Positions 2,957 to 47,098 of a stretch of DNA of 64,000 nucleotides are shown here, one piece after another. A program made the translations under genes and the position numbers. The notes under the pieces are model-generated. The model saw only the letters and a program-made list of their open reading frames with translations. It searched no databases and was not told where the DNA came from. This DNA is from a virus: IMG/VR virus record IMGVR_UViG_3300027733_000032, one strand, 5' to 3'. The first letter of the stretch is position 1. Every line of letters starts with the position of its first letter.

Positions 2957-3595
2957 TTAGAAGCGGCCAGCGTCAAGTCCGCCAACTGCAAGCGTTGTAG
3001 ACGCTGCTTCCTTGTATCTGATTGCAAGCGTGTAACCAGAACCGGCGACTGTCGAGCCAACTGAATCACAGTCAAAAGAAAGAACTGCGCCTCTTGGAAC
3101 GATGACTGGCGAGGTGGTGCAGACGATAGTTCCGCCACTGCTATAGGTACCTGGAGTGCCAACGACGCCAGTAACAGTGACTGTCGTCGAAGTAACTGCA
3201 GAAACCTGCTTGTCGGTAAAGTTGTAAGGCACTGCGCTACCTGCTGAAACAGTGACTCCCGAAACAGTAACCTTGTCGCCGACCTTGAAAAGGTGACCAG
3301 CGGCAACGGTGTAAACAGCGGTTGGTCCGGCACCATTGACGGCACCGCTGATGGTGCCATTCTTGCGAATGACAGCGGCTGTAGCCGGCACGAATGTCGT
3401 GGCGGATACGGAAAGACCAGCGGCAAGGATGCTGGTTCCGTCAGATTCAATGTCGAAAGTCGCAGCGGAGCCAGTGGGGGCGGTGTTTAACTGCAACGTC
3501 GCGCTAAGAATTTCTGCGCTGAACGGCATTACGAGTGCAACCTTTTGAGCAGCGGTCAGTGCTGCTGTATCATTAAAAACAAATGCTAGCGTCAT
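2957..3595 (-). CDS. beta-rich virion protein, decoration-like paralogue 2 with an inserted beta domain
   Basis: MPFSAEILSA...TAPTGSAATFDI...SFDCDSVGST matches 2512..2868; insertion HLFKVGDKVTVSGVT...YN is typical of phage structural proteins. Confidence 0.55.
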   Translation of the reverse strand: MTLAFVFNDTAALTAAQKVALVMPFSAEILSATLQLNTAPTGSAATFDIESDGTSILAAGLSVSATTFVPATAAVIRKNGTISGAVNGAGPTAVYTVAAGHLFKVGDKVTVSGVTVSAGSAVPYNFTDKQVSAVTSTTVTVTGVVGTPGTYSSGGTIVCTTSPVIVPRGAVLSFDCDSVGSTVAGSGYTLAIRYKEAASTTLAVGGLDAGRF

Positions 3596-8698: not shown

Positions 8699-10729
8699 AT
8701 GGCATGGAATAAGACAGAAACAAAATCACTCATCCCTGGTCCGACTAGGGCCATTCTTGGGCCTGGTGCTCCGATTGCACAAAACCCATCCTTTGAAGGC
8801 AAGGGATACCGTGACCCGTGGGACATTGAACGTGCCTACAAAGAGGGAATGCAGAAAGTTACTTGGGTTTCCCGTTGCATTGACGCAATTGCCGGGAATC
8901 AGGCACGCCTTCCAATTATTCTTCGTAAGAACAACTCTCCTGATGGCCAGATTGTAAGCAAGGGCAGGAGCGGGAAGTCAACAATATTAGACCTCTTAAA
9001 TACCAAGTCCAATATTGGTGAAAATTCATACATTTTTAGGTACAGAATGTCATCTCAGATTTTGCTGGGAACTCGTGGTGCCTTTATTGAAAAAGTGCGT
9101 GGGCGAGATGGTGGGATTATTGGACTAAACCTGCTCCCGCCGCAGCATACAAGCCCTATTCCCGACCCTAAAACTTTTGTTTCTGGATACGAAGTCCTTA
9201 TGCCGAATGGCGACAAGGTAATCATGAAACCTCAGGACGTATGCTGGATTCGTAGGCCACACCCAATTGACCCGTATCTTTCCTTGACTCCAATGGAATC
9301 TGCTGGTGTTGCCATTGAAATTGAAAACTTAGCCAAACTATATAACCGCAACTTCCTTCTCAATGACGGTAGACCCGGTGGGCTTCTTGTTCTTCGTGGA
9401 GAGATTGACGATGATGATAAAGAAGAATTGAGAAGTCGATTCAGAGGAAATATTGGACGAGTTGGCTCAACTACGGTAGTTAGTGCGGATGATGGCGTTG
9501 ATTTCGTGGATACCTCATCAAGCCCAAGAGATGCCGCCTATATCCAAATGCGTCAAATTACAAAAGAGGAAATTCTTGCCTCTTTCGGAGTCCCCGAATC
9601 AGTCATTGGCAACGCCTCTGGCAGAACTTTCAGCAATGCGAGTGAAGAAATCCGTGTTTTCTGGAATGAAACGATGGGGCCACACTTGGAAATTCTTGCC
9701 AGAGCACTCGACGAACTAGACGATGACCATTACGTCGATTTTGACACTTCGTCTGTCCCTGTTTTGATTATGGCCAAACAAGAGGTTGAGCGTTATAGCC
9801 TAGAAGAATTCAGAAGCGGAATGATAAGTCTAAACGAATATAGGACTGTGACTGGCAGGGAAAAAGTTGAGTCAGAACTGGCCGACAGCCTCCTAATGAA
9901 CCCCAACCTGACCCCAATCGGCAATACGGAAAAGCCCATGGCCCCACCACAGCAGGGTATGCCCATGCCGGGGGCACAGCCAGGAATGCCGCCGGGAATG
10001 CCGGGAATGCCACCAGAAGCAGCAGGAATGCCCCCAGGGGCGCCAGATGCAAATACGATGAGCGGTGCACTTGCCATGGAGCAAGCCGGGGGAATGGCCA
10101 CTCCAGGAGGCGCTCCTGCGATACCCCCAGAGATGACTGGAGGCCCTGCGGCTGCCGGTCCGGGAGCGTTCGGTCAAATGTCCATGAATCCTGCGGAAAT
10201 GCAGTTCAAAGAAGACATTAGTGAAGTTTCGCTCAATCGCTGGACCGAGATATTAGATAGAAGTCTCGAACGAGTTATGGAGCGTAGTCAGCGTGTTGTT
10301 TTAGAAAAATTGAGTGGTCAAAAATCAAAGAAATCCCTAGCCCAGGGTGTTCTTGACATAAATTCAATTCTTCAAACCGATGTTTGGACCAGACAGATGG
10401 ACGAGGACATTCGACCCGTTCTGTCTGCCATTATAAAAGACTCAAAAATCAATCATGCGGAGAAGTGGGCAATGTATACGCCCCCCACAAACGAAGAAAC
10501 TGCCGTAAACATAGATGCTCAAATGGGAAGAATAAAATCCCTTTATGATTCCTGCGTAGCAACACTTTCAGAATCTATATTCAACTCTTACGGGATAAGT
10601 AGTGATGATGAGCGGTATACCGCTTTACGGACGTCTGTTAATACCGTCTTTACGGACATGTTAGCCAACCAGCGTCCACGCATTGCTTCCTCAGAGGCAA
10701 AACGCGCATGGGAATTCTGCCGCCCATAA
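8699..10729 (+). CDS. portal protein (HK97 family) with a Pro/Met-rich linker and C-terminal extension
   Basis: VSRCIDAIA..ARLP, LLGTRGAF, GLSPM-like YLSLTPMESA, FLLNDGRPGG, ILASFGVPESVIG, SLNEYR. Confidence 0.92.
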   Translation: MAWNKTETKSLIPGPTRAILGPGAPIAQNPSFEGKGYRDPWDIERAYKEGMQKVTWVSRCIDAIAGNQARLPIILRKNNSPDGQIVSKGRSGKSTILDLLNTKSNIGENSYIFRYRMSSQILLGTRGAFIEKVRGRDGGIIGLNLLPPQHTSPIPDPKTFVSGYEVLMPNGDKVIMKPQDVCWIRRPHPIDPYLSLTPMESAGVAIEIENLAKLYNRNFLLNDGRPGGLLVLRGEIDDDDKEELRSRFRGNIGRVGSTTVVSADDGVDFVDTSSSPRDAAYIQMRQITKEEILASFGVPESVIGNASGRTFSNASEEIRVFWNETMGPHLEILARALDELDDDHYVDFDTSSVPVLIMAKQEVERYSLEEFRSGMISLNEYRTVTGREKVESELADSLLMNPNLTPIGNTEKPMAPPQQGMPMPGAQPGMPPGMPGMPPEAAGMPPGAPDANTMSGALAMEQAGGMATPGGAPAIPPEMTGGPAAAGPGAFGQMSMNPAEMQFKEDISEVSLNRWTEILDRSLERVMERSQRVVLEKLSGQKSKKSLAQGVLDINSILQTDVWTRQMDEDIRPVLSAIIKDSKINHAEKWAMYTPPTNEETAVNIDAQMGRIKSLYDSCVATLSESIFNSYGISSDDERYTALRTSVNTVFTDMLANQRPRIASSEAKRAWEFCRP

Positions 10730-10853: not shown

Positions 10854-12314
10854 ATGTCGCAAAATACCACGTCAGATATCAATTTCAAGGCACTTAATGG
10901 GCAGTTCAATATTGATGAGGCCCAAGGAATCGTCGAATGTTTTGTTGCTGCTATTGGCAACAAGGACAGCGTAGGCGACGTAATTGTCTCGGGGGCGTTT
11001 AATGAAAGTCTCAAGCGTCGCAAGCCTCGCGTAGTTTGGGGACACAGTTGGAATGACCCCATCGGTAAGGTCATCGAGATTTACGAAGTACCCGCAAACG
11101 ACCCGCGACTGCCAGCAAAGATGAAGCAGGCCGGAGTTGGTGGAGTTTATGCACGCGTTCAGTTTAATCTCGCAACTGAAAAAGGAAGAGAAGCATTCTC
11201 TAGCGTTGCATTCTTTGGTCCAGAACAAGAATGGTCAATTGGCTACAAGACACTCAATGCCACTTTCGACCCAAATGTACAGGCTAACATTTTAAGAGAA
11301 GTCGAACTTTATGAAGTAAGTCCTGTTCTCCATGGTGCCAATCAGTTGACCGCCACCATCTCCGTAAAGAGCGAAGAGGGTGAAAAGTGTGGCGTTCCAA
11401 TGGGTATGCCAAATTCCCCTCATATGTACGGTGGTACCCCTGCCCCCTCTGCAATACCACGGATTGTCTCCGTTGATGCCAACAGGCTTTCTCCAATACG
11501 AGTCATTAGTGGAGTTGCCCAGCAGGCCCGACCCGACCATAGCAATAATTCACGTGAAGATATTTTTGGTGAAGGAGAGGCGAGAACACTTTCGGATGAA
11601 GCACGGAATATGCTTGCCATGGAATTAATGACGCGTTCCCGTGCGAATCTTGATGTTGTTTATGCAACAGAAAATTCCGTAGTATTCAACCGCGAGGTTG
11701 GGCAAGGAAACCACATTACATACCGTCTTTCGTATTACAGAGACCCGGATAGTGGCGAATATATGTTTGGCAAGCCCGAAAAAATGGGCAGTCATAGCGA
11801 TGACAGTAGAATTGCCTCGCCAACCGTAGTCCCATCACAGATGCCTTCGATGCCAATGATGGTCAAACCACAGGCCGTCAATCCGTACTCGATGAGCGGA
11901 ATGCCTTCTGCTGTTCCCCAGATGGGTAATTATGGAATGGAAAAGTCACTTGATTTTGGCGCAGATACAGCGGCAGATTTTGTTCTTTCAGGAATTCAAA
12001 ACGGCTCTATTTCTTCGTCTACCGGAAATGAAAAAATTGACGCAGTTATTGACATTCTCAAGGGAATGACCGGGAAGTCGGATAATCAGCAGGTATTTAC
12101 CATTGCGTGTGAACCACATGAGGCTTTCTATATTAAGTCAGCAATCGACCCGGTTCTCGAATACCACCGCCTTGATGTAGAAATCGACGAATACGGTATT
12201 CATGTCGTCAATGGGCTATCCACTGAATCAATTAGCGCATTAACCAAGGCCGCAGAATCTATCGAAACTATCACCACTAAGGCTGGTGGTTCAAAAAAAT
12301 ACAAGCGCCCTTAG
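10854..12314 (+). CDS. HK97-type prohead maturation protease with a long C-terminal extension
   Basis: GNKDSVGDVI..GAF, VWGH (His), WSIGY (Ser), LYEVSPV..GAN; AGGAG SD before ATG 10854 (track start is TTG 10830). Confidence 0.92.
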   Translation: MSQNTTSDINFKALNGQFNIDEAQGIVECFVAAIGNKDSVGDVIVSGAFNESLKRRKPRVVWGHSWNDPIGKVIEIYEVPANDPRLPAKMKQAGVGGVYARVQFNLATEKGREAFSSVAFFGPEQEWSIGYKTLNATFDPNVQANILREVELYEVSPVLHGANQLTATISVKSEEGEKCGVPMGMPNSPHMYGGTPAPSAIPRIVSVDANRLSPIRVISGVAQQARPDHSNNSREDIFGEGEARTLSDEARNMLAMELMTRSRANLDVVYATENSVVFNREVGQGNHITYRLSYYRDPDSGEYMFGKPEKMGSHSDDSRIASPTVVPSQMPSMPMMVKPQAVNPYSMSGMPSAVPQMGNYGMEKSLDFGADTAADFVLSGIQNGSISSSTGNEKIDAVIDILKGMTGKSDNQQVFTIACEPHEAFYIKSAIDPVLEYHRLDVEIDEYGIHVVNGLSTESISALTKAAESIETITTKAGGSKKYKRP

Positions 12315-12349
12315 TTTTCGGCCTTGGGTTAAGTCTCGAATCTAAGGGC
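12293..12349 (+). promoter_or_regulatory. putative -1 programmed ribosomal frameshift signal
   Basis: A_AAA_AAA at 12293-12299 in X_XXY_YYZ register; 7-nt spacer; stem gcccttag (12307-14) / ctaagggc (12342-49); -1 frame open from 12281 to 22699. Confidence 0.72.
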
Positions 12350-12406
12350 CTAGGGCCAAAAATTGGAACACGACTTAGTGGTGGGCTTCGTGCAGCACCG
12401 CCAGGA

Positions 12407-15400
12407 ATGTCATTTGTTGACATAACAGGAACCGTTGACGCAGATACAGACGGAATAGTGTTTGAAGGCAAGCCCGGTCTTGAACGACCCATAATCCCTA
12501 GATTCCTTGTACCTAAGAATCTTGCTCGCAAAATTTCTTCACTCACCGAAGGCGACGCCCTAGAAATAGAAAAGCAACGACGCAGTGGTGACGGCAATAT
12601 TTCCTTTGACGAAACAAAACTTCGCTCAATTATTGAAAAAATTGGCGGAGACGTCAACTCCTTGAAGCCCGTGGACGATACAGCCGAAACCGGCATGCGT
12701 AGTGCGAACGCCTCAGACGGCCCGGATTTCCAAGAACCACCGATTGCCGATGTACCAGAACAGTTTGATGGTTTCTGGACCCCAGACGAAGAACAATTGC
12801 GCGACCTAGATAAGCGTTCTGGTCGCAGGACACCTCCTCCTCCTCCTGCCAATATCGGGCAGAAGTATGTAATTTCACGGGATGATGATGGCGTTTATTT
12901 TGCGGAGAATATTTCAGCAGAAGATGTTTGGTCGCTTCGTTCCGGTGCATCAAAAGCGCCGAAGCGTCCTTTCTTTGCCCCACGTGGAGGCGGGAATAAG
13001 CCAGATAACGGCGAAGGTTATTACTTCTCTACAAACGGAAAACGCTATTGGGGCAAGTATGGCGCAGCGGGAGCGTTGGTCCGTCGTAAAAATTCAGACG
13101 GAGAATACGAATATTTTCTAGCGAGACGCGCTGATGGTATGTCGGTCGGTGGTGGCAAGTGGTCATTCCCTGGTGGGGCACACAAAGATAAAGAAAATTC
13201 AAAACTTCCAGGTGCTACTGCGATTGAAGAATTTGGCGAAGAGGTTGGTGGAGATATCTCTACACTCAAACCAATTCACACCTACACAGACCAGGTTGCC
13301 CCTGACTGGAAATACGACACTTACGTGTTTGAGGTTGGGCCGGATGAACTGAATGACTTACGGTCGATGGACGGCGAAAGCACTGATACGGGTTGGTTTA
13401 CGGCATCTGACATTATACAAATGGCAGAAGACGACAAACTTCTAGAGTCATTCAAACGTTCAGCAAAAGAAGTATTTGCTCTTTCTGGAGATGAAGTCAA
13501 GGGCAATAAAACTACAAGAAAAATTAAAAAAACATTGAAGAAAATTAGTGGCGAAAAAGTTACTTCTTGGCAAGAAAAGATAAAAAAATACGAACCAATT
13601 GAACCAGAAGATTATTTTGATATCAATAATGAAATGCAGTCTGATTTTGGTATTTCTATTGGCCAAGTGATGCAGGATGAATACGATGAAGGCGCATCTA
13701 TTAAGGAGATTGCGGAAAACTGGGGAATTTCAGCCCATGAAGTTGAAAAATTGCTTAGTGAAAATAAAAAGGGCGGAATGTCATCAACTTCCGTCGGACA
13801 AATCATGCAGGATGAATACGACGAGGGTGCGTCAATAAAAGAAATTGCAGAAAATTGGGATATAACGACTCAAGAAGTTGAAGATTTTATGAGTCGACCA
13901 CCTTCTGTCGGGATGTCATCTGCCAAAACGAATAGAGATTCACGAGGGCGCGACGCAACGCCAGCAAAAAAGAAAAAATTAGACTCCGTTATAGATTTTG
14001 TTATAGACAAAATTAGTCCAGTCACAGTAATCCAAGCATATATAGATTTTTCTGATAGACGACAGGAAAAAAAGAATCCAAGCCTTACGGCTGAACGTCT
14101 TGCAAGAGAAGAAAAAATGAAGTCAGGAGTCGATAAAGCAGGCAAATCAGGCATATCTATTGCTACAAAAATGGCATTACCAGAGTACAAGACGCTTATG
14201 GAGAAAGTTTCCCTAAATGGGGAGACTGTTCTGGCAAGTACATCAGCAAGAACTGCCGAAGTTCAAAAACTTATCGACAATTTGGCATCAAAAGTTGATG
14301 GTGATTTGGATGGAATGGATTTCTCCAAAGGAAACTTCTCTGGCATTGATTTTAAAAATTACTCATTACGTAACGCAAGTTTCTTTGGCTCCACTCTTGA
14401 TAAATCTAATTTTTCTGGATGCATTATTGACAGCGCCACTTTTGAAGATGCTTCTTTAATTGATGCAAATTTAAGCAAGATAAGTCAAGCATGGCGCATC
14501 GATTTCTCGGGAGCGAATCTAACAAATGCAGATTTAACCAAACTCAATATGCACTCCGCTCTATTGAACGAAACAAACCTTGAAGGGGCAAAACTTGATG
14601 GAGTAAATCTAATCATGGCTGACATTAGGGATATGGATTTCTCTAACGCTCGAAGCATGAGGGGTGTCTTGCTAGAAGAAGTACAGGGAGAAGGTGCAAA
14701 CTTTGGTGGTCTCGATATGACCAACTCATCCTTTGTCTCCGCAAACTTGACAAACACTAATTTTAGTAATGCAAATTTAACTCGTTCAGATTTAAGAAAC
14801 GCAAAACTGGATAAGGCTGATTTTAGTGGCGCAAACATGGAGGGTATTGAACTAGAAAAACCAGGTTTATCTCCATCCAGCATGAAAGAAACAAAATTTG
14901 ACAATATGCCGACCAAGGGCGAAGAGGGCACCCCTTCGGGTATGAGTTCCCTTACGCGTCCCTATCGTGATACCAGTGATGAAGAGTTAAAGGCCCTGTA
15001 CGAAAAATATTTACGTTACCTAGGCGGCCCTGGGGACAAGGGTGACAGCGATTTTACATACATGCGACGGTCAAAAGAATATGACAAAATTAAGAAAGAA
15101 ATTGCTCGGCGTGAGAAAGATGGCAAAAAACCAAGCAAGGGAATGAGTTCTGAAACAAAGTTGCCAGGAAATAAAGAAATGCCAGGATTACCAGATGATG
15201 AATTAACATCAAAACTTGATGACAATGTAAATTCGCTCAATGAACTGGAAACTCTTCTTGACGATGGAGAAATTGACCTCGCCGAGTACAGAAAGCGTCA
15301 AATCCCATTACGTAAAGAAGCGGCAGAATTGGGCGCAGAGAAAAAACGTCGGTCTGGTGAAAAGCCAAAAACTGGTGAAACTGGCACTCTAAAAAGAGAA

Positions 15401-18400
15401 AAAGTCATAGACCGTGGCGATGGGATGATTAAGCGCGACGAACGCGGAAATCCATCTGAATGGAATGGGCAGAAATTCTTAGACGGAGAAGCAGGAAAAC
15501 GCAGACAGGCGATTCTTGAACTTGGCTTCACCGAGCAAGAAGCAGACACTCTTCTTGGCCAGCGACCAAGTCCGCAAAAATCCGGCATGGGAAGTCGCAG
15601 CAGCGCCAAGACTAAGCCTACATTTTCACTCACTCCATTGAACTTGTTCATCAAGCGCGAGACAACGCGAACAAAAGGACCGGTCCCAGAGTTGAGCGGA
15701 TGGTCAGACAGAGAATTGGCCGATTCTCTCTCAATGTACGATATTCGCGCACCACGTGCGTGGGACGAAGAACGTGGTTCATTCATTCCTTCATGGTTCC
15801 CTTCGAAAGACTCTCTAGTTCGTGAATTTGATAGTCGTGGTTACAACGTATTTCTTGGTACGTCTGGTTCAAGACAATACAACGATTTAATGTTCTCTGT
15901 TCTGGCGAAAGATAATGCCATCCCGCAAGAAATGCGCAGGAGAATATGGAAGCCGTCAGGATTGCTTACGAAGGCAGTACGTGATGGTGAAGAAGAAACG
16001 GGTCAAGTTTTCCCATTGAAGTCAAGGATGAAGAATTGGGAGTTTGCGGCGCAAGCGGCAGATATGACTGATGTAGAAGTTCGCTCACTAGATGTCGAGT
16101 TCGACAATGAACGAGCAAATAAACTCGCCGACGTACGGTCGGGAATAATCTCCAAGGAGCAGTTTAATAAATGGTACGAGGGAGAACTCACGCCGCTTAG
16201 ACGTGCGCTTTCTGCAGAACTTACACGTCGTTCGTTAAGGAAGGCCGTAGATGGAAAACAGACAATAGAATCTGTTTTTGGTACCGGACTAACACCAAGA
16301 GAATATGCATTCCTATCAAAGGACCCATTGTTATTTACTCGGGCAGCGGGAATGATGTCGCGCAATGGTGGTTCAACTATCGACAAGATGGTTAAAAATG
16401 GAGAAATTACTCAAGAAGACCTTGAGTTCATACAGCAATACCATGACCTATCTGACAGACTAAGCGTTGATTTGTATGACGAGTTAACGAATTTATTTGG
16501 CTCAAATCCGGATGACGTTGATTGGGATTCGCTTGATATCGATACTAAGTCAAAGTCGCGAGATATTCACGCTAAGTGGATGAGAAAATATTCTGCATCA
16601 TTATCTCAATTGGGCGACGGTCAAAAAAGAAGTCGCAATGAACTTGCGAATATGGGCTTTGACGATGGGGAAATCGACGACATAATGACCGGAAGCATGT
16701 CTTCTGGTGGCATGTCTTCCAAGCGTAAATCAAACAAAAAAATTACGTCAAAATGGTCTGAAGAAGACAGGCGTGCATTTACTGAACAAAACCTTCGTTC
16801 CAAGAAAGTACCGAAGAAGAAAAAGAAAGGTCCAGTAGCCAACGAATGGACCGAACGTCGCGCTGGAAGAGAAATTAAGTCAACGACGCGAGCAAGTGAT
16901 TCTACTTATGGCGATTCTGCAAAAACAGCATCGTATTACGAGTCTCTCGCAAATCAATATTTTTCTGGAATTGCTGAATATGTTGGCGAAGACACTCGAA
17001 TAGTAAACAGTAATTACAACCCAAATATACCTACCATGGATGAGCCGTTTGCATCAATCCGAACGTCGACAGTTGGCTCACTCAAGGATGGGGACTTCCT
17101 TCCTGACGGATTTGATGCTCCAAGCATGTTTTCTACTCCTACGAATCCACGTTACAAAGTTGTCTATGTGAGCAAAGACAAAGATGGGCAGATTGTATTC
17201 GGAGCACGCGATTTACAGACTGGTGAATTGCTCGTAAAGAAAATGGGCGTAAATGAAATTCTTCCAAATGTCATGCGTCAATCTACCAATAAGCGATTTG
17301 GTGGAATGTCCAGTTCTAGGAAAGTTGGAGATGTAAAACTTCACGCCAAGTTGGCCGACCAATTTAAATTCGAACAATTTGATGAAATTGAGAAAGACCT
17401 GAATGGTTTTATTGACGAAATAAATTCAATCAATGAACAACTTAATATTATTTGGAAAAATGGCCAGCGCCGCACAGACGCTGGACTGCCAGATTCTGAC
17501 TTTGACGAAAAACGCTATGGCGAACTAGAAGATATGCGTTCGAGCCTAGAAGATACAGTCGGAGAATATGTAAAATTCGCCGAATTTGTTGCTCAAGAAA
17601 ATATTATGCGTCGCCGCAATAAGGCTGCAGTAAAACTTGCAAAAGAAAAAGTTCAAAATGCACTAAAAAAACAAGAGTCTCCAAGCGGCAATCCATTTGA
17701 GATGAACGATATTGATACTCGTAGGCTTTTTGAACTTGGAGTGACAGAAGCAGACGTTGCTGACATATTGGATTCATTCGACATTGATGACCGAGAGATG
17801 GAAAGAGTATTTACTGCTGGTCGACCACCATTTACTGGGACAAAATTTGCTAAGCAAATTTCCAGCATTATAGATAGTCGCTCTTCACTAGATGGTCCTG
17901 AATTTGAAGAATTTGACCCAGAAGACGAAGACGAACAAAGAGAGATTTCAAAACTTGCAAGAAGAATGATTAATTCTGCGGCAGACGATTCTGCTCGTCG
18001 TTCCAAAATCACCGACCGCTCAAAGACGATGATTGATGTTGGCGTATCCTCTTCGTCTTCTGGCGGCATGTCAAGCAAGACACCAATGGGTAAAGGGCTT
18101 GGCACCAGTAAGGTCCTCTACCCAACGCGACCAAATAAATTTATCGCAAAAGATGTTTCGTTTGTATTTTACGATGCCAATCGCGAAGAGTTGTCTGTTG
18201 GCTACAAAGATAAAAAGAAATATGTTTTTGGTGGCATTACTCCAGAAATGGTCAACGACATTGAGAATGGCAAAAATTCACTAATCGCTTCACTCAATGC
18301 CGTCAAGAAAGATGCGCGCTACACAATCAACCCAGATGGCACGGTCATGGGCTCGCCCCCGAATACCCTCAAGTTACTGAATCGCGACAAGGACAGACTT

Positions 18401-21400
18401 GAGTTAATTGGCGATGACCTCGAAGTCGTTGAGTCTGTTATTGACGGCCTAAAGAATGGCCAAAACGACATGACGCGCAAAATGCGCAGCGATAGAAGAA
18501 ATCAAGCCATGTCAATGGCATCTGGATTGGCTAAAAATAATGAATACGCAATGGCTTTCAATATCATGGACGCACTTGATGAGATAGATACGCGCACTAA
18601 TGGCGCTGGGTATATGCCCAATGGAATGCGCTCGTACGCGGCAACAATACATCCAAGAGTTCAAGTTGGTCTATCACAGGATGAAGTTGGCGAAATCCGT
18701 GATGAAATACGCGCGATAATGCGTAAACATAACGGGAATTTCTTTATCAAGGATGGCCTATCCAAGTACGACGGCAATCTTGCTGCTGCACAAAAGAAAG
18801 AAGGACGTGCTCAACTAGTACTCCTTTTGCCTGAATATAACGCCATCATGAATTCCTATGAAGAATTAGCGAAAATTGACCCAGACTGGACTTCTGTTGT
18901 CGGGCCACATCCGGTGGAACTTGCTGGTGTTAGCAAGGACGGACGATTCGACACGGAGAAATTCAAGCAGACTGGAGATTTTGCCGGAAAACTCATCAAC
19001 AATGGAGCACCTAGTGAAATCACTGTTGCTGAACAGCGCGAATTGATTAATTGGGCAAGACGTCAACCCGGTTTCAGAATTGTTCAAAGTATTGCCTCTT
19101 CATATGATGAAAAAAATGGCGCACTTACCGCGAATCAGTGGCGCACGCTCCGTTCACTTCATAGTAACTATGGCAAGAATCAATACAACAGAGGCGGCTT
19201 AGAATCTAGAAGAAACTCTATTGGTATGCGTTCAACCAGTAGTACCGATGGACCCATGCCCATGAATGCGGTTTCCGGAAATACCATGGGGAATTTTGTT
19301 CCCTATGGCGGACCAACCGAAGGTGGCTCACGCAACGCCGAAGTTATTCCCAATGTAGACATCAAAGGCAAATCAGTAGAGCAGGTGGTTCCAGAAGGAA
19401 TCAGCGATGAAGAAGCATTGGCACTCATAGAGAGTATCGGTGCATATCACCCCAAGGCGAACCCTGATGGAATCAAGGGACGAGAGTATGTCGAGCGTAG
19501 AACGCGCTTGCTGGATTCAATCGCAGAAACACGCAGAATCACCGAGCGACGAGCAGCACTTGAGCGCGCTCAGCAAAGTGGCCAAATAGGCGACGACGTC
19601 AACCTGCCAAGTCATTTAGAGTTTTGGCCATTGGTTTCAGAAGACACTAAGTCCAGGTTGAATACGGCTGCGCAAAACAAATATGGCGCTCAATTCATAG
19701 ACCTAGAACCATACCAAATGGAAGATGTATTGGTTTTTGAAACAGGCGCATCTGGCTACTACTCCGCTGGGACTTTTAAGCAAATTAAAAAGCGACCAAA
19801 CGCCATTGATATGGAGGACTGGGAACGCTTGCTCCTTCCAGTTCATCAGCGTGTCAGCGAAATAGATGAAGAAGAAAAAATAAAGCGCGAGGCTGCTCGA
19901 CTTGAAGCCGATAATAGTCCATCGCTCGAAGACATGTTAGACGACCCCAATATTGCCCCAGAACGCAAAGCCCGAATTGAAGGCATCCTTGCAATGCGGC
20001 GCGAGTCGGAGCGAAAGTGGAAAGAGTCTGCACAAACCTCTTCGGCAAAACGCAGAAGTGCTGCAAAGAAGGAAATAAAACTTCAAAAATATGAAACCAT
20101 TGATGATGTTGGGCGAGACTCAGTTAAAAATATTGAGACAATGGCCAAGGCTAAGTATGGGTCTAAGTTTGACTCCCTCACTCCCGTACAACAAAAAGAT
20201 GTACTTGACTCTTACGCCAAGGAAAGATTTGGCGTTGAGCATTACAGGAACATTGAACAGTCAGTCCAGAAGGCGCAGTCAATGGCCGAACGTTTCTCTC
20301 AACAAGAAAGAATTGACGGAGAACACCTAGCGGCATGGGATTCAATTACTGATTTCTTCAACTCATCAGAGCAACCTTCATTCACTGGCGAAAAAATAGA
20401 TTCTTTACGTGAACTACTAGACAATTATCCAATTGAAAATGAAAATTCAACCGATGCCGAATTATTGTTGAGTAATAAGATTGAAGATATTTCTTCACTT
20501 ATTGACGAAATGGAAATGTCTTATGATGACGAAAACATAACCATACCTACTGGCCGTACCGGTGGAATGGCTTCAAGCAAAAAATTCACTCCGCGTGGGG
20601 TGGAGGTTGAGCGAGATGAATCATCTTCACGTATTGGTGGCATGTCATCTCTATTTAACAGAAATAAGCCAGACAAAACAGAAACAGATACTGGCACGGT
20701 GAAGGCTCCAGATAAGCCTTCAAAGCCGGAACGCAAGAAGCCAATTGTTACAGATGGATGGAAAAAAGTTGGCGGTCAAGGCGGCTCTAATCCGGGCGGA
20801 TTTTTTGAAGATGAGAATGGCGTTCGCCATTACGTAAAGACGCCACGAAGTCTCTCTCATATTGAAAGTGAAGTGCTCGCGGCAGAACTATACAAGATGC
20901 TCGGTCTCGGGGTTCCGCAAATTTCCCAAGGCTCGTATCAAGGTAAGCCCAATGTCGTATCAACACTTATTAGCGAACCAAGCAGACCCATCACTGGGGC
21001 TATGGGTGACGGTAGTAAGCAATGGCAAGCAAAAGTCATTGAAGGATTTGTGGCAGACGCATGGCTCGCCAACTGGGATGCCGTACTTAATGACAATGTT
21101 CGTGCTGACAAAAACGGAAACCCTATTCGTGTTGATAATGGTGGCTCCATGAAGTGGAGAGCGCAAGGCGGCCCGAAGGGTGCAGCATGGGGGAATACTG
21201 TTGGTGAAATTGACTCACTAAGAGGACAAAGCCCTGCTGCTCCTGTGTATAGGCAGATAACTGACCAGCAAATCAAGGACCAAGTTGCAAAACTGGAAGC
21301 AATTTCTCCGGACACAATCAAAGCGACTGTGGCTTCAATCGTGTCCGACCCCGCCGAAGCAAAAGAATTAACAGACACGCTGTTGGCAAGAAGGCAAGAC

Positions 21401-22699
21401 CTCATTAATCGCTTCGGCAAGGGGCGTAGTGCAGGAATGTCTTCACGCACTGCACTAAAACCAATGCCAGAATTTGGTTCACAGAAATTTATGGAATCTC
21501 TGCCTGCGACACTCAGCGACCTCTCGAATGAGGAACTTATGCGAATGTGGGACTCAACGAGGCCGTTTGTCAACCTACAGCAGTACGAGATGGGCGAGAA
21601 TGCGAAGAATTTGAATATCCGAATGGAGAAAATTAAAACAGATATTCGTAAGAGAATTAAGAGTGAAGTTTCTTTGAGGAATGGTGCTCCGGAATCTCGT
21701 TCTGAAAAAATCGGCCAAGGGTCTGCTGAGGCCATGGCTCGGGCTTCGGTAGAAAGAAAGAATCGCTCCGAGGCAATTAGAAATTTATTAAATAATCGTT
21801 CAAACGCGATTAAGAAGTATTACTCCTCAACGCGCATGGAAGACGACCAACACACCGCCATATGGGACGACATAGATGCAGCCCTCATGGCAGACGGTGA
21901 TACAGACATTACACTCTCCAAACTTGACTCAATGATTCAACTTTTAGATGACTATATTTCTTCTAACAAAAAAGATGTTTCCAAAAATGAACAGAGACGC
22001 AATGTGGGTCAGGCTGAAAAAATGCGCATCTCTCTTGCTCAATTAGCAGAAGAGTATGCAAGCGACCCATATGTGAAAAATGGCGGAGAAGACTTGGAAA
22101 AGCCAAAGACTCCACGAATTAATCGCAATGGGGCAGAAACTCAGAATCCTGCATCAGAAAATAACAATATTTCTTCACGAATTTCCATGGCTCCAACTAA
22201 AACAACCGCTCAATATATGAGCGCACGCAAGGGTGAAGCAAGAGCAGAGGGGATGCGTTCATCTACGGGTATGGCGTCCAAAACCGGGAGGGCGGAGATT
22301 CGTGGAGAAGCAACTTTCTTTAAGTCTATCCAAGACATGCTCTTATATGAAGCAGGAAAATCAGACGATTCTAAAGCGTCTTCCGCCCTACGTACGCTAC
22401 ACACAATAATGACAAGACAGAAGTCGGGCCTCATATCCGACAAGAGAACTAACGCTGGGGCAATATATTTAATGCAGGATGAATTAGACAACATTTTAGA
22501 TGCGTTATTTCTATCCATTGACAGACAGGTCGGTAGAGACAATGCAGATAGAGCAAAATTGCTATCAAATTTTGCTGACATGCTAGCAATGGCTGGTATG
22601 GCCACATTTATTGACAAGTCAGTTCCAGAAGTCAATTCCCGAACAGTCAAAAAATTCAATAGCGAGGGGAGAGAAGTGGAAATACCCTTAAATGAATAA
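12407..22699 (+). CDS. giant polyvalent protein 1 (NUDIX, 2x HTH-like, pentapeptide repeats, KTSC, HipA/PI3K-like kinase; 17 GMxS motifs)
   Basis: NUDIX WGKYGAAG...FPGGAH...ATAIEEFGEEVG; A(D/N)LxxA repeats 14320-14880; KTSC 18150-18310; kinase GSNPGG..YVK..EVLAAELY..LANWDAV..DNGGS 20760-21420; coding frame begins upstream of this ATG. Confidence 0.85.
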   Translation: MSFVDITGTVDADTDGIVFEGKPGLERPIIPRFLVPKNLARKISSLTEGDALEIEKQRRSGDGNISFDETKLRSIIEKIGGDVNSLKPVDDTAETGMRSANASDGPDFQEPPIADVPEQFDGFWTPDEEQLRDLDKRSGRRTPPPPPANIGQKYVISRDDDGVYFAENISAEDVWSLRSGASKAPKRPFFAPRGGGNKPDNGEGYYFSTNGKRYWGKYGAAGALVRRKNSDGEYEYFLARRADGMSVGGGKWSFPGGAHKDKENSKLPGATAIEEFGEEVGGDISTLKPIHTYTDQVAPDWKYDTYVFEVGPDELNDLRSMDGESTDTGWFTASDIIQMAEDDKLLESFKRSAKEVFALSGDEVKGNKTTRKIKKTLKKISGEKVTSWQEKIKKYEPIEPEDYFDINNEMQSDFGISIGQVMQDEYDEGASIKEIAENWGISAHEVEKLLSENKKGGMSSTSVGQIMQDEYDEGASIKEIAENWDITTQEVEDFMSRPPSVGMSSAKTNRDSRGRDATPAKKKKLDSVIDFVIDKISPVTVIQAYIDFSDRRQEKKNPSLTAERLAREEKMKSGVDKAGKSGISIATKMALPEYKTLMEKVSLNGETVLASTSARTAEVQKLIDNLASKVDGDLDGMDFSKGNFSGIDFKNYSLRNASFFGSTLDKSNFSGCIIDSATFEDASLIDANLSKISQAWRIDFSGANLTNADLTKLNMHSALLNETNLEGAKLDGVNLIMADIRDMDFSNARSMRGVLLEEVQGEGANFGGLDMTNSSFVSANLTNTNFSNANLTRSDLRNAKLDKADFSGANMEGIELEKPGLSPSSMKETKFDNMPTKGEEGTPSGMSSLTRPYRDTSDEELKALYEKYLRYLGGPGDKGDSDFTYMRRSKEYDKIKKEIARREKDGKKPSKGMSSETKLPGNKEMPGLPDDELTSKLDDNVNSLNELETLLDDGEIDLAEYRKRQIPLRKEAAELGAEKKRRSGEKPKTGETGTLKREKVIDRGDGMIKRDERGNPSEWNGQKFLDGEAGKRRQAILELGFTEQEADTLLGQRPSPQKSGMGSRSSAKTKPTFSLTPLNLFIKRETTRTKGPVPELSGWSDRELADSLSMYDIRAPRAWDEERGSFIPSWFPSKDSLVREFDSRGYNVFLGTSGSRQYNDLMFSVLAKDNAIPQEMRRRIWKPSGLLTKAVRDGEEETGQVFPLKSRMKNWEFAAQAADMTDVEVRSLDVEFDNERANKLADVRSGIISKEQFNKWYEGELTPLRRALSAELTRRSLRKAVDGKQTIESVFGTGLTPREYAFLSKDPLLFTRAAGMMSRNGGSTIDKMVKNGEITQEDLEFIQQYHDLSDRLSVDLYDELTNLFGSNPDDVDWDSLDIDTKSKSRDIHAKWMRKYSASLSQLGDGQKRSRNELANMGFDDGEIDDIMTGSMSSGGMSSKRKSNKKITSKWSEEDRRAFTEQNLRSKKVPKKKKKGPVANEWTERRAGREIKSTTRASDSTYGDSAKTASYYESLANQYFSGIAEYVGEDTRIVNSNYNPNIPTMDEPFASIRTSTVGSLKDGDFLPDGFDAPSMFSTPTNPRYKVVYVSKDKDGQIVFGARDLQTGELLVKKMGVNEILPNVMRQSTNKRFGGMSSSRKVGDVKLHAKLADQFKFEQFDEIEKDLNGFIDEINSINEQLNIIWKNGQRRTDAGLPDSDFDEKRYGELEDMRSSLEDTVGEYVKFAEFVAQENIMRRRNKAAVKLAKEKVQNALKKQESPSGNPFEMNDIDTRRLFELGVTEADVADILDSFDIDDREMERVFTAGRPPFTGTKFAKQISSIIDSRSSLDGPEFEEFDPEDEDEQREISKLARRMINSAADDSARRSKITDRSKTMIDVGVSSSSSGGMSSKTPMGKGLGTSKVLYPTRPNKFIAKDVSFVFYDANREELSVGYKDKKKYVFGGITPEMVNDIENGKNSLIASLNAVKKDARYTINPDGTVMGSPPNTLKLLNRDKDRLELIGDDLEVVESVIDGLKNGQNDMTRKMRSDRRNQAMSMASGLAKNNEYAMAFNIMDALDEIDTRTNGAGYMPNGMRSYAATIHPRVQVGLSQDEVGEIRDEIRAIMRKHNGNFFIKDGLSKYDGNLAAAQKKEGRAQLVLLLPEYNAIMNSYEELAKIDPDWTSVVGPHPVELAGVSKDGRFDTEKFKQTGDFAGKLINNGAPSEITVAEQRELINWARRQPGFRIVQSIASSYDEKNGALTANQWRTLRSLHSNYGKNQYNRGGLESRRNSIGMRSTSSTDGPMPMNAVSGNTMGNFVPYGGPTEGGSRNAEVIPNVDIKGKSVEQVVPEGISDEEALALIESIGAYHPKANPDGIKGREYVERRTRLLDSIAETRRITERRAALERAQQSGQIGDDVNLPSHLEFWPLVSEDTKSRLNTAAQNKYGAQFIDLEPYQMEDVLVFETGASGYYSAGTFKQIKKRPNAIDMEDWERLLLPVHQRVSEIDEEEKIKREAARLEADNSPSLEDMLDDPNIAPERKARIEGILAMRRESERKWKESAQTSSAKRRSAAKKEIKLQKYETIDDVGRDSVKNIETMAKAKYGSKFDSLTPVQQKDVLDSYAKERFGVEHYRNIEQSVQKAQSMAERFSQQERIDGEHLAAWDSITDFFNSSEQPSFTGEKIDSLRELLDNYPIENENSTDAELLLSNKIEDISSLIDEMEMSYDDENITIPTGRTGGMASSKKFTPRGVEVERDESSSRIGGMSSLFNRNKPDKTETDTGTVKAPDKPSKPERKKPIVTDGWKKVGGQGGSNPGGFFEDENGVRHYVKTPRSLSHIESEVLAAELYKMLGLGVPQISQGSYQGKPNVVSTLISEPSRPITGAMGDGSKQWQAKVIEGFVADAWLANWDAVLNDNVRADKNGNPIRVDNGGSMKWRAQGGPKGAAWGNTVGEIDSLRGQSPAAPVYRQITDQQIKDQVAKLEAISPDTIKATVASIVSDPAEAKELTDTLLARRQDLINRFGKGRSAGMSSRTALKPMPEFGSQKFMESLPATLSDLSNEELMRMWDSTRPFVNLQQYEMGENAKNLNIRMEKIKTDIRKRIKSEVSLRNGAPESRSEKIGQGSAEAMARASVERKNRSEAIRNLLNNRSNAIKKYYSSTRMEDDQHTAIWDDIDAALMADGDTDITLSKLDSMIQLLDDYISSNKKDVSKNEQRRNVGQAEKMRISLAQLAEEYASDPYVKNGGEDLEKPKTPRINRNGAETQNPASENNNISSRISMAPTKTTAQYMSARKGEARAEGMRSSTGMASKTGRAEIRGEATFFKSIQDMLLYEAGKSDDSKASSALRTLHTIMTRQKSGLISDKRTNAGAIYLMQDELDNILDALFLSIDRQVGRDNADRAKLLSNFADMLAMAGMATFIDKSVPEVNSRTVKKFNSEGREVEIPLNE
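14939..15150 (+). repeat. dispersed ~65-codon module (RPYRDTSDEELK...GGPGDKGDSDFTYMRR), copy 1; copies 2-3 in tandem at 33672-34085
   Basis: near-identical protein and DNA (cgtccctatcgtgataccagtgatgaagag vs cgtccttatcgcgacacgagtgacgaagaa vs cgtccttatcgcaatacgagtgatgaagaa). Confidence 0.9.
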
Positions 22700-22761: not shown

Positions 22762-24558
22762 ATGGCCAAACAATTCAAATACTTCTGCATGGTGAACCAA
22801 GAAAAGGCTATTATGCCATGTAGTGGTTGTAGTAGCCCCAATGGCTGCCTTTTAAAAACCATGCACTACAAGGAGTCGACAACAATGAACTACGACGAAA
22901 AAGCAATAGTTAAGATTGAAAGCGACGGCAGTGTTGCTAAGTGCGCTAAGGGTCTTGCCGTCAGCGAGTGTGGCTTTAAGGCTGGCTCAAAAGTCTGTGG
23001 CAAGTGTGGTGCCATGCCTGTTCAAATCAAGATGGTTCCTGTTGATGACATGGCAGACGAAGACATGATGGACGAAGAAGACGACATGACCGAGCAGCAG
23101 AAAATGATGATGCGTCGTCGTACTGCTCGCAAGGCTATGGGGATGCCCATGGACGATACGGAAGACGAAGAAACCGTAGCCGAAGACATGGAGTCAATGC
23201 CTGAAGATGAGGAAATGACTAACGGCAAGATGTGGGGCGGAAAGCCGTACCGCAAGGGCATGCGTATGCCTGCATCAGAAATCATGGACGACGAAGACAT
23301 GATGGATGACGAAGAAGACGTGGCTAGCAAGTCGCATGACGACAACATGAAGAGAATGCGTCGTCAAAGAAAAGCAATGGATGCCGCAATGAGCATGGGC
23401 GATGACGAGGATTTGCCAGACGAAGACATGATGGATGATGAAGAAGAAGTCATGGCTACTCCAAAGGGCTACGGTCGTGGTGGTATGCGCTACAAGTTGG
23501 ACGAAGAAGACATGGCCGAAGGTCCAGAAGACGGCATAGATGATGAGGAAGACCTCCTTGAAGGCGACGAAGAGGAAGACATCGTTCCCATGCGTCGCCC
23601 AATGAATGGTCAGACCCCCAGCATGGAAGACCTCCGTATGGCTCGTCTCCGCAAAATGGGCACCAAGTCTGCCGACGTCGGAATTAATGGATACCTCTGT
23701 GCAATTGACCGCAAAGTACATCCAGGTTCAATCTCCGTCTGTGATGACTGCCCAGGTGGCTGCATGGCAGAAAAGGGACTCCCAGGGCTCCTCCACATCG
23801 AAGGTCTCGCAGAAATGATGTTCAAGGGTGACGTTATCGATTCTGGCTACTCACAAGAAGCCGACATGTTCGTTATCGACGTTCAGACTAAGTCTGGCAA
23901 TGTCAATGAGATTTTCATTGATGGAACCACGGCAGAAGTGCTTGGATTCCACCGTCTTGATGACAGCGTTTTTGAACAGAAGTCGCTCATGGACGATATT
24001 CAACTTATCGACTTCAATGAAGCCGCTGAACTTGCCGTGAAGTCGGTTCCTGGAATCGTCGTGGCTGTTGAGCCAAGCGTATTTGAGGGATTTGACGCCT
24101 ATCAAGTAGAAGTGGATGGCTTTGACCAGAAGTCCTATGACGTGTTCGTCGCCCTTGATGGCGAAGTTCTTGGCTGGGATAAGTGGGAGCCTGAAGACAC
24201 CGACCAGATTGAGGCAGAGGCTGCAGAAATTGCACTAAAGAGAGCGTTTCCGGACGACAAGCGTCAAGAAATGGCCAAAGAAGGCACCGCAATGGATGAC
24301 GGTTCTTTCCCAATTGCCAATGAATCTGACCTTCGTAACGCAATCATGTCTCATGGCCGAGCAAAAGATGTCGAGGCAGCAAAAATGCACATCATGAAAC
24401 AAGCCAAGGCAATGGGCAAGGAAGACATGATTCCTGCTGAATGGGTTTCCGGCGGGGAGAAGTCGCTAACTGTCGAAGGCGGTCCCACCGATGAATTCCT
24501 TAAGACTCTTGTTGAGTTTGAATTGCTTTCGGCTGAAGTTGACGAAACCGGTAAGTGA
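22762..24558 (+). CDS. acidic head-associated (scaffold-like) protein with Cys clusters, 2x PepSY-like domains and a protease-associated DGSFPI domain
   Basis: very D/E/M-rich middle; EAAELAVKSVPGIVVAVE...YQVEV...DVFVALDGEVL PepSY pattern; KRQEMAKEG.AMDDGSFPI...DLRNAI..HGRA (DUF6582-like, recalled); real start may be ~22887. Confidence 0.65.
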   Translation: MAKQFKYFCMVNQEKAIMPCSGCSSPNGCLLKTMHYKESTTMNYDEKAIVKIESDGSVAKCAKGLAVSECGFKAGSKVCGKCGAMPVQIKMVPVDDMADEDMMDEEDDMTEQQKMMMRRRTARKAMGMPMDDTEDEETVAEDMESMPEDEEMTNGKMWGGKPYRKGMRMPASEIMDDEDMMDDEEDVASKSHDDNMKRMRRQRKAMDAAMSMGDDEDLPDEDMMDDEEEVMATPKGYGRGGMRYKLDEEDMAEGPEDGIDDEEDLLEGDEEEDIVPMRRPMNGQTPSMEDLRMARLRKMGTKSADVGINGYLCAIDRKVHPGSISVCDDCPGGCMAEKGLPGLLHIEGLAEMMFKGDVIDSGYSQEADMFVIDVQTKSGNVNEIFIDGTTAEVLGFHRLDDSVFEQKSLMDDIQLIDFNEAAELAVKSVPGIVVAVEPSVFEGFDAYQVEVDGFDQKSYDVFVALDGEVLGWDKWEPEDTDQIEAEAAEIALKRAFPDDKRQEMAKEGTAMDDGSFPIANESDLRNAIMSHGRAKDVEAAKMHIMKQAKAMGKEDMIPAEWVSGGEKSLTVEGGPTDEFLKTLVEFELLSAEVDETGK

Positions 24559-39426: not shown

Positions 39427-41456
39427 TTATTTACGATTTGCAGAAACCGAGTAAATGTTGCCCAAATTCCGTGGTTACTGTTCGTCGTCATATCGTCGAA
39501 ACGAACCGCCAGCCACAGGGCGGAAGCATTCTTTTTTCTCAAAAGGCCGTAAATCCAGAAATAGTCACATACAAAGCACTTTCTCAGTCCCACGGAACTA
39601 GATTTAAGTACGAAGTTAAAAGAGTAGGGCTGGTTGGCTCTAGTGGGAAATTGGGACAAACACTACAGGCTGCTGGTTCCTATGTCCTTCCTGGAGATTC
39701 GTCTCCATTGCGTAGCCCGGTTAGGTCCGGTCTATTCACGGCAATAACTCCCGGAGTACCTAACTTCAGTAGGCCACGCGGCCCCAAGAGGGACAGAACA
39801 GCAAGATGCCCTGAAGGATATCAATACGGTGGTCGTTTTACTAATAACGAACTATCCACATGTGGAGCCCAACTATTTGACATTCCAGGACCACTGGGGG
39901 TCGTTATTGGCGTAATTGCCCGAGCACTTCGTCGTGGCGAACGAGCCGTAGCCGATGCCATGCAAGGGACCCCATTGACCCCTGGGGATTATGGTGGCAG
40001 CCTCATAGATTCACGTCGACCACAAATACCGCGCGTCGCAGACGCTAATCCAGCCTCACGGATGGCCGAAATTACCCGCCTTGCAAAAGAGATGGGCGCT
40101 CCCAAAATCAATGCTTCACGCATGGTGCGTCGTGATGGATTTGTTCTTGAACCAGTAGTAACACCAAGAGTCCTTCGCGCAATTCCAGACAACAGAGACA
40201 TGGAGGGTGCCGCATATCTTATGCGAATCAACGACCTTCCAAGCCTGGGTCAAGATGAATTAGGACTTCTTTCCAATACTGGAGTAACTAATCTAACCTA
40301 TGTTCTTCCAGGTGGCTCAACAATCACTCTCGAAAAGGTACGCTCATTAACCGTTGGCGAGCGCCGCAAACTTGGTAGAACAGTCAATTCAGCAGCAGCG
40401 ATTGATAATTCAGAAAATCCAACCGCCCGTCTCATGAAGGTAGCCCAAGAAACTGGCGATGGTATTAAGTATTCCGAAAATTTTGTAAGCGTGAATAGAC
40501 CCCATGAAATTGTTAGGGGTAGAAATGGGAAAAAGACGGAACGGTGGGTTCGTGAACTTCTTGACGGCATCCCAGTGGCAGAAACAGCGCCATCACGTGA
40601 GACTTCGTCTGTTGCCGCAATAGCCGACAAGATTAAAGACGTAGATGAGGCTGCAGCCTTTATTGAGCAGGGTGGAAGCCTGGCAAGAATTTCGCCGGAT
40701 ATTCTTCAGCAGGCCCTCACAAAAAACAATTTATTCCGCTTGCGAGATATGGGCAATGGAGTCACTCGGCTTGATGGCCCTAGAGGCAAAACTTATTCAA
40801 TTTATCAATCTCGCAATGAGTTTGACCATATCAATAGCACTTATGCTTCCGATATTCAACAACATCTGGGCCTAGAGTCGCCAGATGTGTATCCGATTGG
40901 TTCGGGTAGTCGCCGTAATTATCTTATGGATTCGACACTAAATACCTACCCTGGAATAACTCCACGTCGAGACATTCCAATGAATCAAGTTAGTCCAAAA
41001 AAAATGGCATCACTATTTGTCTCTGACTATTTGAGTGCCAATAGAAACAGAAATCCGCTGTCAATAGAAGTGATGCAATTAGCGGACGAAAATGTTCCAG
41101 TAGTCAATTCCTTTGACTCAGAATTAACAGACTTGGCTAAAATAAAGATTGCAGACCGTAATAAGGGCGCAATTGAAGACATGCGCTCATTGTCTGCCAA
41201 TGGCGTTTTCGGCAAATATTATGCTGAACTTAAAAAATCACAGCAAAATCAGTACATTACTGAAATTAGGGAATTAATTGCACGGGCTCGCCTATTTAAT
41301 TTTGTAAACTTTAAAGAGAGACTTCAGCGTGATGGCGCGCTTTCCGATGCGGAACTTGCACATGTTGACATTATTAATACAATCAGCAAGCAAAGGCTGA
41401 ATATTCTCGAAAATCAACAGGAAAGACTTGTTGAAATACTCGGAGGTAACAAGTGA
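39423..41456 (+). CDS. virion-associated protein with an RCP-G-GxFT-C motif and a C-terminal degenerate HipA/PI3K-like kinase fold
   Basis: RCPEGYQYGGRFT ~39805; LGLESPDV...SDYLSANRNRNP...NSFD resembles DxLxxNxDR but the catalytic Asp residues are changed. Confidence 0.65.
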   Translation: MIIYDLQKPSKCCPNSVVTVRRHIVETNRQPQGGSILFSQKAVNPEIVTYKALSQSHGTRFKYEVKRVGLVGSSGKLGQTLQAAGSYVLPGDSSPLRSPVRSGLFTAITPGVPNFSRPRGPKRDRTARCPEGYQYGGRFTNNELSTCGAQLFDIPGPLGVVIGVIARALRRGERAVADAMQGTPLTPGDYGGSLIDSRRPQIPRVADANPASRMAEITRLAKEMGAPKINASRMVRRDGFVLEPVVTPRVLRAIPDNRDMEGAAYLMRINDLPSLGQDELGLLSNTGVTNLTYVLPGGSTITLEKVRSLTVGERRKLGRTVNSAAAIDNSENPTARLMKVAQETGDGIKYSENFVSVNRPHEIVRGRNGKKTERWVRELLDGIPVAETAPSRETSSVAAIADKIKDVDEAAAFIEQGGSLARISPDILQQALTKNNLFRLRDMGNGVTRLDGPRGKTYSIYQSRNEFDHINSTYASDIQQHLGLESPDVYPIGSGSRRNYLMDSTLNTYPGITPRRDIPMNQVSPKKMASLFVSDYLSANRNRNPLSIEVMQLADENVPVVNSFDSELTDLAKIKIADRNKGAIEDMRSLSANGVFGKYYAELKKSQQNQYITEIRELIARARLFNFVNFKERLQRDGALSDAELAHVDIINTISKQRLNILENQQERLVEILGGNK

Positions 41457-47072: not shown

Positions 47073-47098
47073 ATATCACTGCTTTAGGTGGATTGAAA

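Follow-up and report, generated by a model that had tools for sequence, protein, structure and literature searches.

How is a giant open reading frame (ORF) translated when it has no start codon near its beginning? The question is raised by a stretch of 64,000 nucleotides (nt) from IMG/VR virus record IMGVR_UViG_3300027733_000032 (the window), which is part of the 90-kb contig of a tailed phage from freshwater metagenomes. In this window the gene of the prohead protease (10854-12314) gives way to a start-less ORF in the -1 frame, here called giant 1 (12281-22699). The most convincing answer, already proposed in the initial annotation, is programmed -1 ribosomal frameshifting where the protease gene ends, with both a protease and a protease-cargo fusion as products. 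The junction is well supported as a real, conserved recoding signal by comparison with related loci. The features of the junction and of the cargo genes discussed below are on the plus strand.

The protease frame ends with the codons GGT, TCA, AAA, AAA, TAC, AAG, CGC, CCT and TAG. The run of seven A residues forms a slippery heptamer, A_AAA_AAA (12293-12299), in the X_XXY_YYZ register, which reads Lys-Lys in both frames, and the 0-frame stop TAG (12312-14) lies four codons past it. From 12281 to 22699 no stop interrupts the -1 frame (3,472 codons between stops), and the earliest ATG, GTG or TTG in it is the ATG at 12407, 38 codons past the heptamer. Without a shift the predicted product has 486 amino acids (aa; ~53 kDa) and with a -1 shift it has 3,948 aa (~438 kDa). 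Every position given in the initial annotation was confirmed, and its figure of ~3,950 aa for the fusion agrees with the computed length. The tryptic peptide IQAPLVFGLGLSLESK is encoded in the -1 frame, upstream of ATG 12407. An in-register heptamer, a 3' structure that begins about 5-8 nt further on and a conserved start-less -1 ORF are the sequence criteria of bacterial -1 frameshifting, and each of them was found here.

A split of this kind could also come from an assembly error or from an indel that recently inactivated a constitutive fusion gene, given that homopolymers are error-prone and that most relatives are in-frame fusions. The A7 run was observed to be free of indels in contigs (not raw reads) from runs X1, X5 and X6; X1 is possibly the window's own source, and the X6 contig, sampled years later, represents another strain that differs by 20 substitutions in 888 nt. 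Both halves of the locus are intact, and the split layout recurs in a clade of 13 distinct junction sequences (60-93% protease identity) and, separately, in the relatives L179 and L181. The concern about the A7 run expressed in the initial annotation is thereby largely answered, and we give this explanation next to no weight.

The region before ATG 12407 was also predicted to be coding, and this was confirmed by the homology of the -1 peptide to the inner parts of two other cargo ORFs, ORF 41453 (53% over 130 aa, E 2e-31) and ORF 47093 (59% over 98 aa, E 7e-27). The peptide leads into a cargo leader module (12335-12703, by BLASTP) made up of a Gly-rich segment followed by F-V-D-x-T-G, D-x-D-x-D-G and R-P-I-I-P motifs, which starts before the ATG. 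A second copy of this module is located in frame inside ORF 41453-46714 (42089-42478) and a third in frame inside ORF 47093-56914 (47735-48013).

An independent start for giant 1, either at ATG 12407, at a non-canonical codon or by re-initiation, would reduce the heptamer to a relic or a pause site. Such a layout does occur in the L064 group and in L151 (L064:4384-4620 and L151:4381-4620), where no heptamer is found and the stop is followed by a stretch rich in purines and by an ATG that has a Shine-Dalgarno-like sequence. Relatives with a start of their own had been named beforehand as evidence against a frameshift; these two exist, but both have lost the heptamer and therefore do not refute a frameshift in the window. 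Five split relatives have a TTG or GTG four codons past the heptamer, and in the window AGGA abuts ATG 12407. However, at the TTG/GTG position the window's subclade has GCG, L056 and L059 have ACG and L058 has CTG; close twins of L058 have TTG there, which also encodes Leu, so that this swap is synonymous. The split clade shares no conserved start codon. ATG 12407 itself lies inside the conserved module, is replaced by Leu in L003, and its AGGA has zero spacing. The 38 codons ahead of it are conserved as protein, including a putative protease cut site. An independent start is thus quite improbable.

The frameshift reading gains most from the relatives. Three scans with the protease gave 211 loci, from which 94 distinct junctions with enough downstream sequence were obtained; the last protease domain was located by hidden Markov model and heptamers were then sought regardless of frame layout. 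An in-register heptamer was observed in 74 of the 94 junctions, 5-16 codons past the last protease domain, with G_GGA_AAA as the dominant type (51), followed by A_AAA_AAA (21) and single cases of G_GGA_AAG and U_UUU_UUA. Elsewhere in these genes in-register heptamers start at 88 of 40,994 codons (0.2%), which corresponds to a 2.5% chance per 12-codon window. The 74 junctions fall into 25 clusters at 75% nucleotide identity and the signal is therefore not that of one clonal group. The single U_UUU_UUA, in place of the Lys-type site, belongs to the deep-branching L121 and might be an independent solution or chance. No second GGxGG-heptamer cassette was found in the genome of the window.

We noticed that the base preceding the heptamer codons changes with the identity of the site. 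The codon before the heptamer encodes nine different amino acids family-wide, yet its last base is G ahead of each of the 51 GGA AAA sites and A ahead of each of the 21 AAA AAA sites; for example, Ser is TCG or TCA and Pro is CCG or CCA before GGA AAA and AAA AAA, respectively. By comparison, Gly-Lys and Lys-Lys pairs elsewhere in these genes form a heptamer in only 6 of 356 cases. For the Lys codon in the A site, 72 of the 74 junctions use AAA, against a background of 49%. Judged from these alignments, the constraint at the junction is one that acts on the RNA. The same observations bear on transcriptional slippage, in which RNA polymerase would add one A in the A7 run and ordinary translation would then give the fusion, as in the Thermus dnaX type. 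The pure A run of the window would suit this process, but it is only A7 here and A4 in 50 relatives, where efficient slippage is described for runs of at least 8-9 (PMC1088944, PMC5009743). Moreover, the run is locked to the codon register, its preceding base covaries and a hairpin stands at ribosome distance on its 3' side, none of which would be expected from slippage by the polymerase. We prefer ribosomal over transcriptional slippage because of the four-A sites and the register covariation, and consider slippage by the polymerase unlikely.

Immediately past the heptamer the RNA is predicted to be strongly folded, the mean folding energy in 36-nt windows going from ~-6 to -14.3 kcal/mol exactly at this point. 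The spacers between heptamer and hairpin are 4-8 nt across the family, and 5-8 nt is the spacing given for 3' structures in -1 shifts (PMC4066793). In one clade set all 84 cells were found to be paired and four of the six pairs have changed on both sides (covariation 0.705 versus 0.285 when shuffled, 0/500); in another set all 105 cells are paired, with one G-C to C-G swap. In the window, GCCCTTAG (12307-14) is fully complementary to CTAAGGGC (12342-49) with a spacer of 7 nt from the heptamer, so the perfect 8-bp (base pair) stem described earlier is correct. Together with inner helices this base stem forms a candidate 3' stimulatory hairpin (12307-12349; RNAfold -18.1 kcal/mol), which includes the stop TAG and has a z of -2.5, with p ~0.01 against synonymous recoding of the -1 peptide. 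Among the four closest sequences of the window's subclade, fourfold sites are identical at 69 of 72 positions (96%) over 20 codons past the heptamer compared with 72 of 171 (42%) downstream. An Rfam search gave no match near the heptamer.

The initial annotation further suggested a pseudoknot between 12320-27 and 12350-57. This pairing is possible, but it behaves as part of a competing predicted structure, a longer hairpin (12312-12365; -20.8 kcal/mol) that contains the proposed pseudoknot helix and is mutually exclusive with the first hairpin. The stem 12307-14/12342-49 is predicted while the 3' end of the RNA is at 12350-56, and the hairpin from 12312 gains a slight advantage in stability once further sequence is available. 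An H-type pseudoknot was rejected on its geometry, since it leaves a loop of 5 nt to bridge both stems (16 base pairs) and zero nucleotides separate the 3' strands of stem 1 and stem 2. Its conservation is also poor: one pair of the second stem is broken in L002, 73% of cells are paired in the clade, and the helix is not retained in the sister subclade.

Our alignments show that the signal occurs in two polarities. In 14 junctions, including that of the window, a stop closes the 0 frame within 0-7 codons and the cargo lies in the -1 frame. In the other 60 the cargo is in frame with the protease and the -1 frame stops after 1-13 codons, in 24 of them after one codon. The proposal that a fraction of ribosomes makes the fusion thus applies to the window's lineage only; most relatives use the signal in the reverse sense, for a short protease. 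On the protease tree, the 13-member split clade of the window is nested among in-frame members and L179 forms a distant second split lineage; its -1 peptide aligns straight to the in-frame peptide of its neighbours and was seen in two contigs. A single origin of the split state was rejected by an approximately unbiased (AU) test with p 7e-11, on a quick tree in which the L179 branch is longish. By this tree the state in which a -1 shift gives the fusion has at least two origins. The cassette is ancestral in the family. Polarity is not simply tied to cargo size, as the split L179 has a cargo of 557 aa and cargoes of more than 1,300 aa occur in several in-frame members. At least two flips of the sense point to selection on the product pair and its ratio; in the simplest reading the short and the long product are both under selection, and the long one may lie in either frame.

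The second element of the cassette is a Shine-Dalgarno-like GGTGG (12285-12289), 3 nt 5' of the heptamer, which was identified by column conservation in the relatives. Its five columns are conserved in 73, 73, 61, 67 and 69 of the 74 junctions and the codon GGT is used in 61 of 73 cases against a background of 26%. Positions -9 to -14, where an optional internal Shine-Dalgarno sequence would be placed (9-14 nt upstream), are variable.

Several observations weigh against a -1 frameshift at this site, and the position of GGTGG is the first of them: a 3-nt spacing is given for +1 shifts, and 9-14 nt for -1 shifts (PMC5009743). It is possible to suppose from this that the signal serves +1 or mixed-direction shifting, as in prfB, for truncation only, with the window's fusion as a by-product; either shift would truncate the protein in the in-frame relatives. 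However, only the -1 frame reaches the cargo in the 14 split junctions, where the +1 frame of the window and the 13 others is closed within 5-21 codons. In the 60 in-frame relatives the -1 stop is kept near but the +1 stop is not (0-119 codons), and the X_XXY_YYZ covariation is a -1 signature. These patterns make +1 shifting very improbable. Secondly, earlier studies reported G_GGA_AAA to be inefficient in E. coli, although insertion sequence (IS) elements make use of it (PMC4066793). Thirdly, the more stable competing hairpin starts 12 nt past the heptamer, and the sister subclade pairs the same GCCC with a nearer partner to give a shorter hairpin. No change, and hence no compensatory change, is seen in the window's own stem across the four sequences closest to it, so that the conservation looked for since the initial annotation was observed in the hairpins of relatives, with compensatory changes, and not in this stem. 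The sequences are also related and the counts therefore overstate independence. Finally, around 20 of the 94 relatives have no heptamer at the junction, which suggests that the two products are not needed in every lineage; these 20 junctions are mostly in-frame fusions, with the L064 group and L151 having a stop and then a separate ATG. Some members that lack it at the junction (L098, L111 and L119) carry an in-register A_AAA_AAA 45-55 codons past that point, where the hairpins are weak; that of L111 has GGTGG upstream and a -1 stop next. Set against these points are the family-wide heptamer and hairpin, the in-frame fusions of the same parts in relatives and the indel-free A7 run, and on this balance we retain the -1 frameshift that fuses protease and cargo.

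Under -1 frameshifting, it is probable that both the 486-aa free protease and the 3,948-aa fusion are produced. Ribosomes keeping to the 0 frame would stop four codons past the heptamer and release the free protease, and ribosomes paused by the hairpin would slip back one base on A_AAA_AAA, with tandem tRNA-Lys, to produce the fusion. Proteases of the HK97 type go into the prohead and cleave between Lys and a following small residue. The fusion probably enters the prohead with the protease and is probably cut past the joint at E-S-K/G (between Lys and Gly; 12338-12349, -1 frame, upstream of ATG 12407), a site proposed because it fits this specificity. Cleavage would leave a cargo polyprotein with the leader common to the other giants. 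The putative site is 16-19 codons past the shift site, and E-x-K/[AG] was observed at the equivalent place in relatives and in other cargo ORFs, ahead of the shared leader. The short form would then be the supply of free protease, the fusion would be the carrier of giant 1 into the head, and the cargo would ultimately be delivered into the host.

The protease is of the HK97 type and belongs to Peptidase S78 (Pfam PF04586, E 4.5e-12, 46.9 bits against a Pfam cut-off of 21; PHROG 80). Its gene comes after the portal gene, with ATG 10854 preceded by AGGAG as the likely start; the TTG 10830 chosen by the ORF finder is less likely. The S78 domain is at the N-terminus, and its catalytic motifs with His64 (WGH) and Ser128 (WSIG) are invariant in the alignment of relatives. 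C-terminal to it are two small folded domains, residues ~240-315 and ~411-476, encoded at 11570-11800 and 12085-12280, with possible cystatin-like and KH-like arrangements (Z at most 7). A fold search with the protease model (mean predicted local distance difference test score, pLDDT, 47) found common folds only, cystatin-like with Z up to 7.2 and KH/ferredoxin-like with Z up to 7.1. The nearest proteases of isolated phages are those of Gordonia and Brevibacterium phages, with ~39-41% identity in the catalytic domain only, and in Chidiebere the protease is a stand-alone gene. Among the relatives searched, the full protease-cargo arrangement was found in no isolated phage.

Giant 1 has 3,468 aa from the heptamer, with NUDIX, helix-turn-helix (HTH), HNH-like and pentapeptide-repeat parts and repeated G-M-[RSA]-S tags. 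In Pfam only the NUDIX, HTH and pentapeptide repeats were matched, and no polyvalent hub domains, but its size and context fit a polyvalent protein. A C-terminal domain of ~150 aa (22199-22642) has homologues in 22 relatives, at the C-terminal end of their in-frame protease fusions (27-41% identity, lowest E 1e-24). At its other end, too, giant 1 is homologous to what lies in frame in fused relatives. Directly after giant 1 is a 598-aa gene with Cys-rich and acidic parts (22762-24558, plus strand), a homologue of which follows the protease-cargo gene in relatives by tblastn, indicating that the locus is orthologous. The shared C-terminus and the conserved next gene together identify giant 1 as the orthologue of the fused cargo. 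The product of 22762-24558 has no match in Pfam or PHROG; it has Cys-rich repeats, numerous x-K-[SAG] sites and a long stretch rich in Met and acidic residues, and looks scaffold-like. The tags occur across five giants (12293-56914) as GMSS (16), GMRS (14) and GMAS (6), with the clade-specific variants GMRSR, GLAS and GFAS in relatives, and may be candidate further cut marks between cargo modules. Residues 879-953 of giant 1 (~14930-15150) contain ~70 aa that are 77-83% identical to residues 3031-3096 and 3102-3172 of giant 2 (33660-34085); from this identity, it is a case of recent module copying between cargo genes. ORF 47093-56914 (3,273 aa) is a classical polyvalent protein with ArdC-N, MPTase-PolyVal, zeta-toxin-like and DUF3721 domains.

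The locus runs from the terminase gene (minus strand) to the portal gene (8699-10729, plus strand; Phage_portal in Pfam, E 1e-45), the prohead protease, several giant ORFs and the HK97-type major capsid gene at 57587. The junction is therefore in the head module and not between tail tube and tape measure genes, which rules out a tail assembly chaperone G/GT site; tail sheath-, tube- and tape measure-like genes, as judged by eye, are outside the window, elsewhere in the genome. A ferritin-like gene (59224-59706) lies two genes past the major capsid gene. At the window's end a methionine aminopeptidase gene (63141-63977) was found to be 95% identical to actinobacterial-type proteins, most of which have an additional N-terminal SEC-C domain, and 82% identical to one named Ilumatobacteraceae protein. 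Bases 63214-64000 are absent from the 90-kb genome contig, so that this gene is partly off the contig; the phage may carry a host gene here, or the window end may be chimeric. The nearest isolated proteases, from Gordonia and Brevibacterium phages, suggest that the host is probably an actinobacterium, and the Ilumatobacteraceae match is a hint in the same direction. A genome scan returned only phage contigs in mixed bins of metagenome-assembled genomes and was uninformative on the host.

If the -1 frameshift holds, it would explain how enough maturation protease stays free while the same protein carries ~400 kDa of cargo. For annotation, it means that gene callers break the locus in two, with the start of giant 1 placed within a conserved module, and that they miss the short protease in ~60 relatives. 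A bolder proposal, which we offer tentatively and which may well prove wrong, is that the cassette acts as a family-wide cargo dial that sets the number of giant anti-host polyprotein copies per head and is retuned by polarity flips, with the 3-nt GGUGG as a so far undescribed -1 modulator in actinobacterial ribosomes. In this proposal the fusion would be wired as the frameshifted product, as the default product, as a constitutive product, or with the cargo split off under its own start. A joint wired in four ways, and flipped independently at least twice, would make a natural experiment on selection for product ratio versus mechanism, and the 70-odd natural cassettes offer a panel for frameshift rules in actinobacteria.

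Known phage frameshifts are mainly in tail chaperone, capsid and tail genes, and no description of a frameshift in a prohead protease gene was found in the literature searched, which left out subscription papers. The tail assembly chaperone gpG/gpGT frameshift of lambda, with GGGGGAA-type sites in actinophages (PMC5009743, PMC10885494), is similar in that a conserved -1 shift ends a morphogenesis gene and sets a ratio of short to fused product at comparable G-rich/A-rich heptamers. It differs in that the gene here is a head protease, that most members are shortened by the shift and that a strong hairpin is conserved. Frameshift-extended capsid and tail proteins, such as T7/T3 gp10 and those of Lactobacillus A2 and Listeria A118/PSA, as well as Ig-like extensions (PMC5009743), also place a C-terminal extension on a share of the copies of a head protein, and in-frame and frameshifted versions both exist. 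Here, in contrast, the carrier is the maturation protease, the extension is an internal cargo of several thousand residues, and in-frame relatives retain the signal for the short form. The carboxysome proteins CsoS2A and CsoS2B are likewise two length forms, made by frameshifting, of a protein that acts inside an icosahedral shell (PMC5009743), but CsoS2 is a cellular scaffold, unrelated in sequence, where the phage has a protease with cargo.

The closest formal parallel is dnaX tau/gamma, where E. coli shifts -1 at A_AAA_AAG to a stop, the reversed layout is predicted in Chlorobium and Thermus uses transcriptional slippage on A9 (PMC5009743). Both systems combine a heptamer with a 3' hairpin to give short and long forms, both can have the stop one codon past the shift, and both polarities exist among relatives; since polarity reversal was already predicted for dnaX, the flip is not new as a concept. 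The present case differs in being a phage head gene with an extension of 500 to more than 3,400 aa of swappable cargo, and in having AAA rather than AAG in the A site and the Shine-Dalgarno-like motif at 3 nt rather than 9-14 nt. Polyvalent proteins, as described by Iyer et al. 2017 (PMC5512222), are giant multidomain proteins encoded among head genes and predicted to be packaged, injected and cut by peptidases. The giant multidomain ORFs of the window are likewise found among head genes, and ORF 47093 shares the ArdC-N and MPTase-PolyVal domains. In that work the assemblin-like peptidase invariably lies at the C-terminus and frameshifting is not mentioned, whereas in this family the S78 protease is N-terminal and appears to be coupled to its cargo by recoding.

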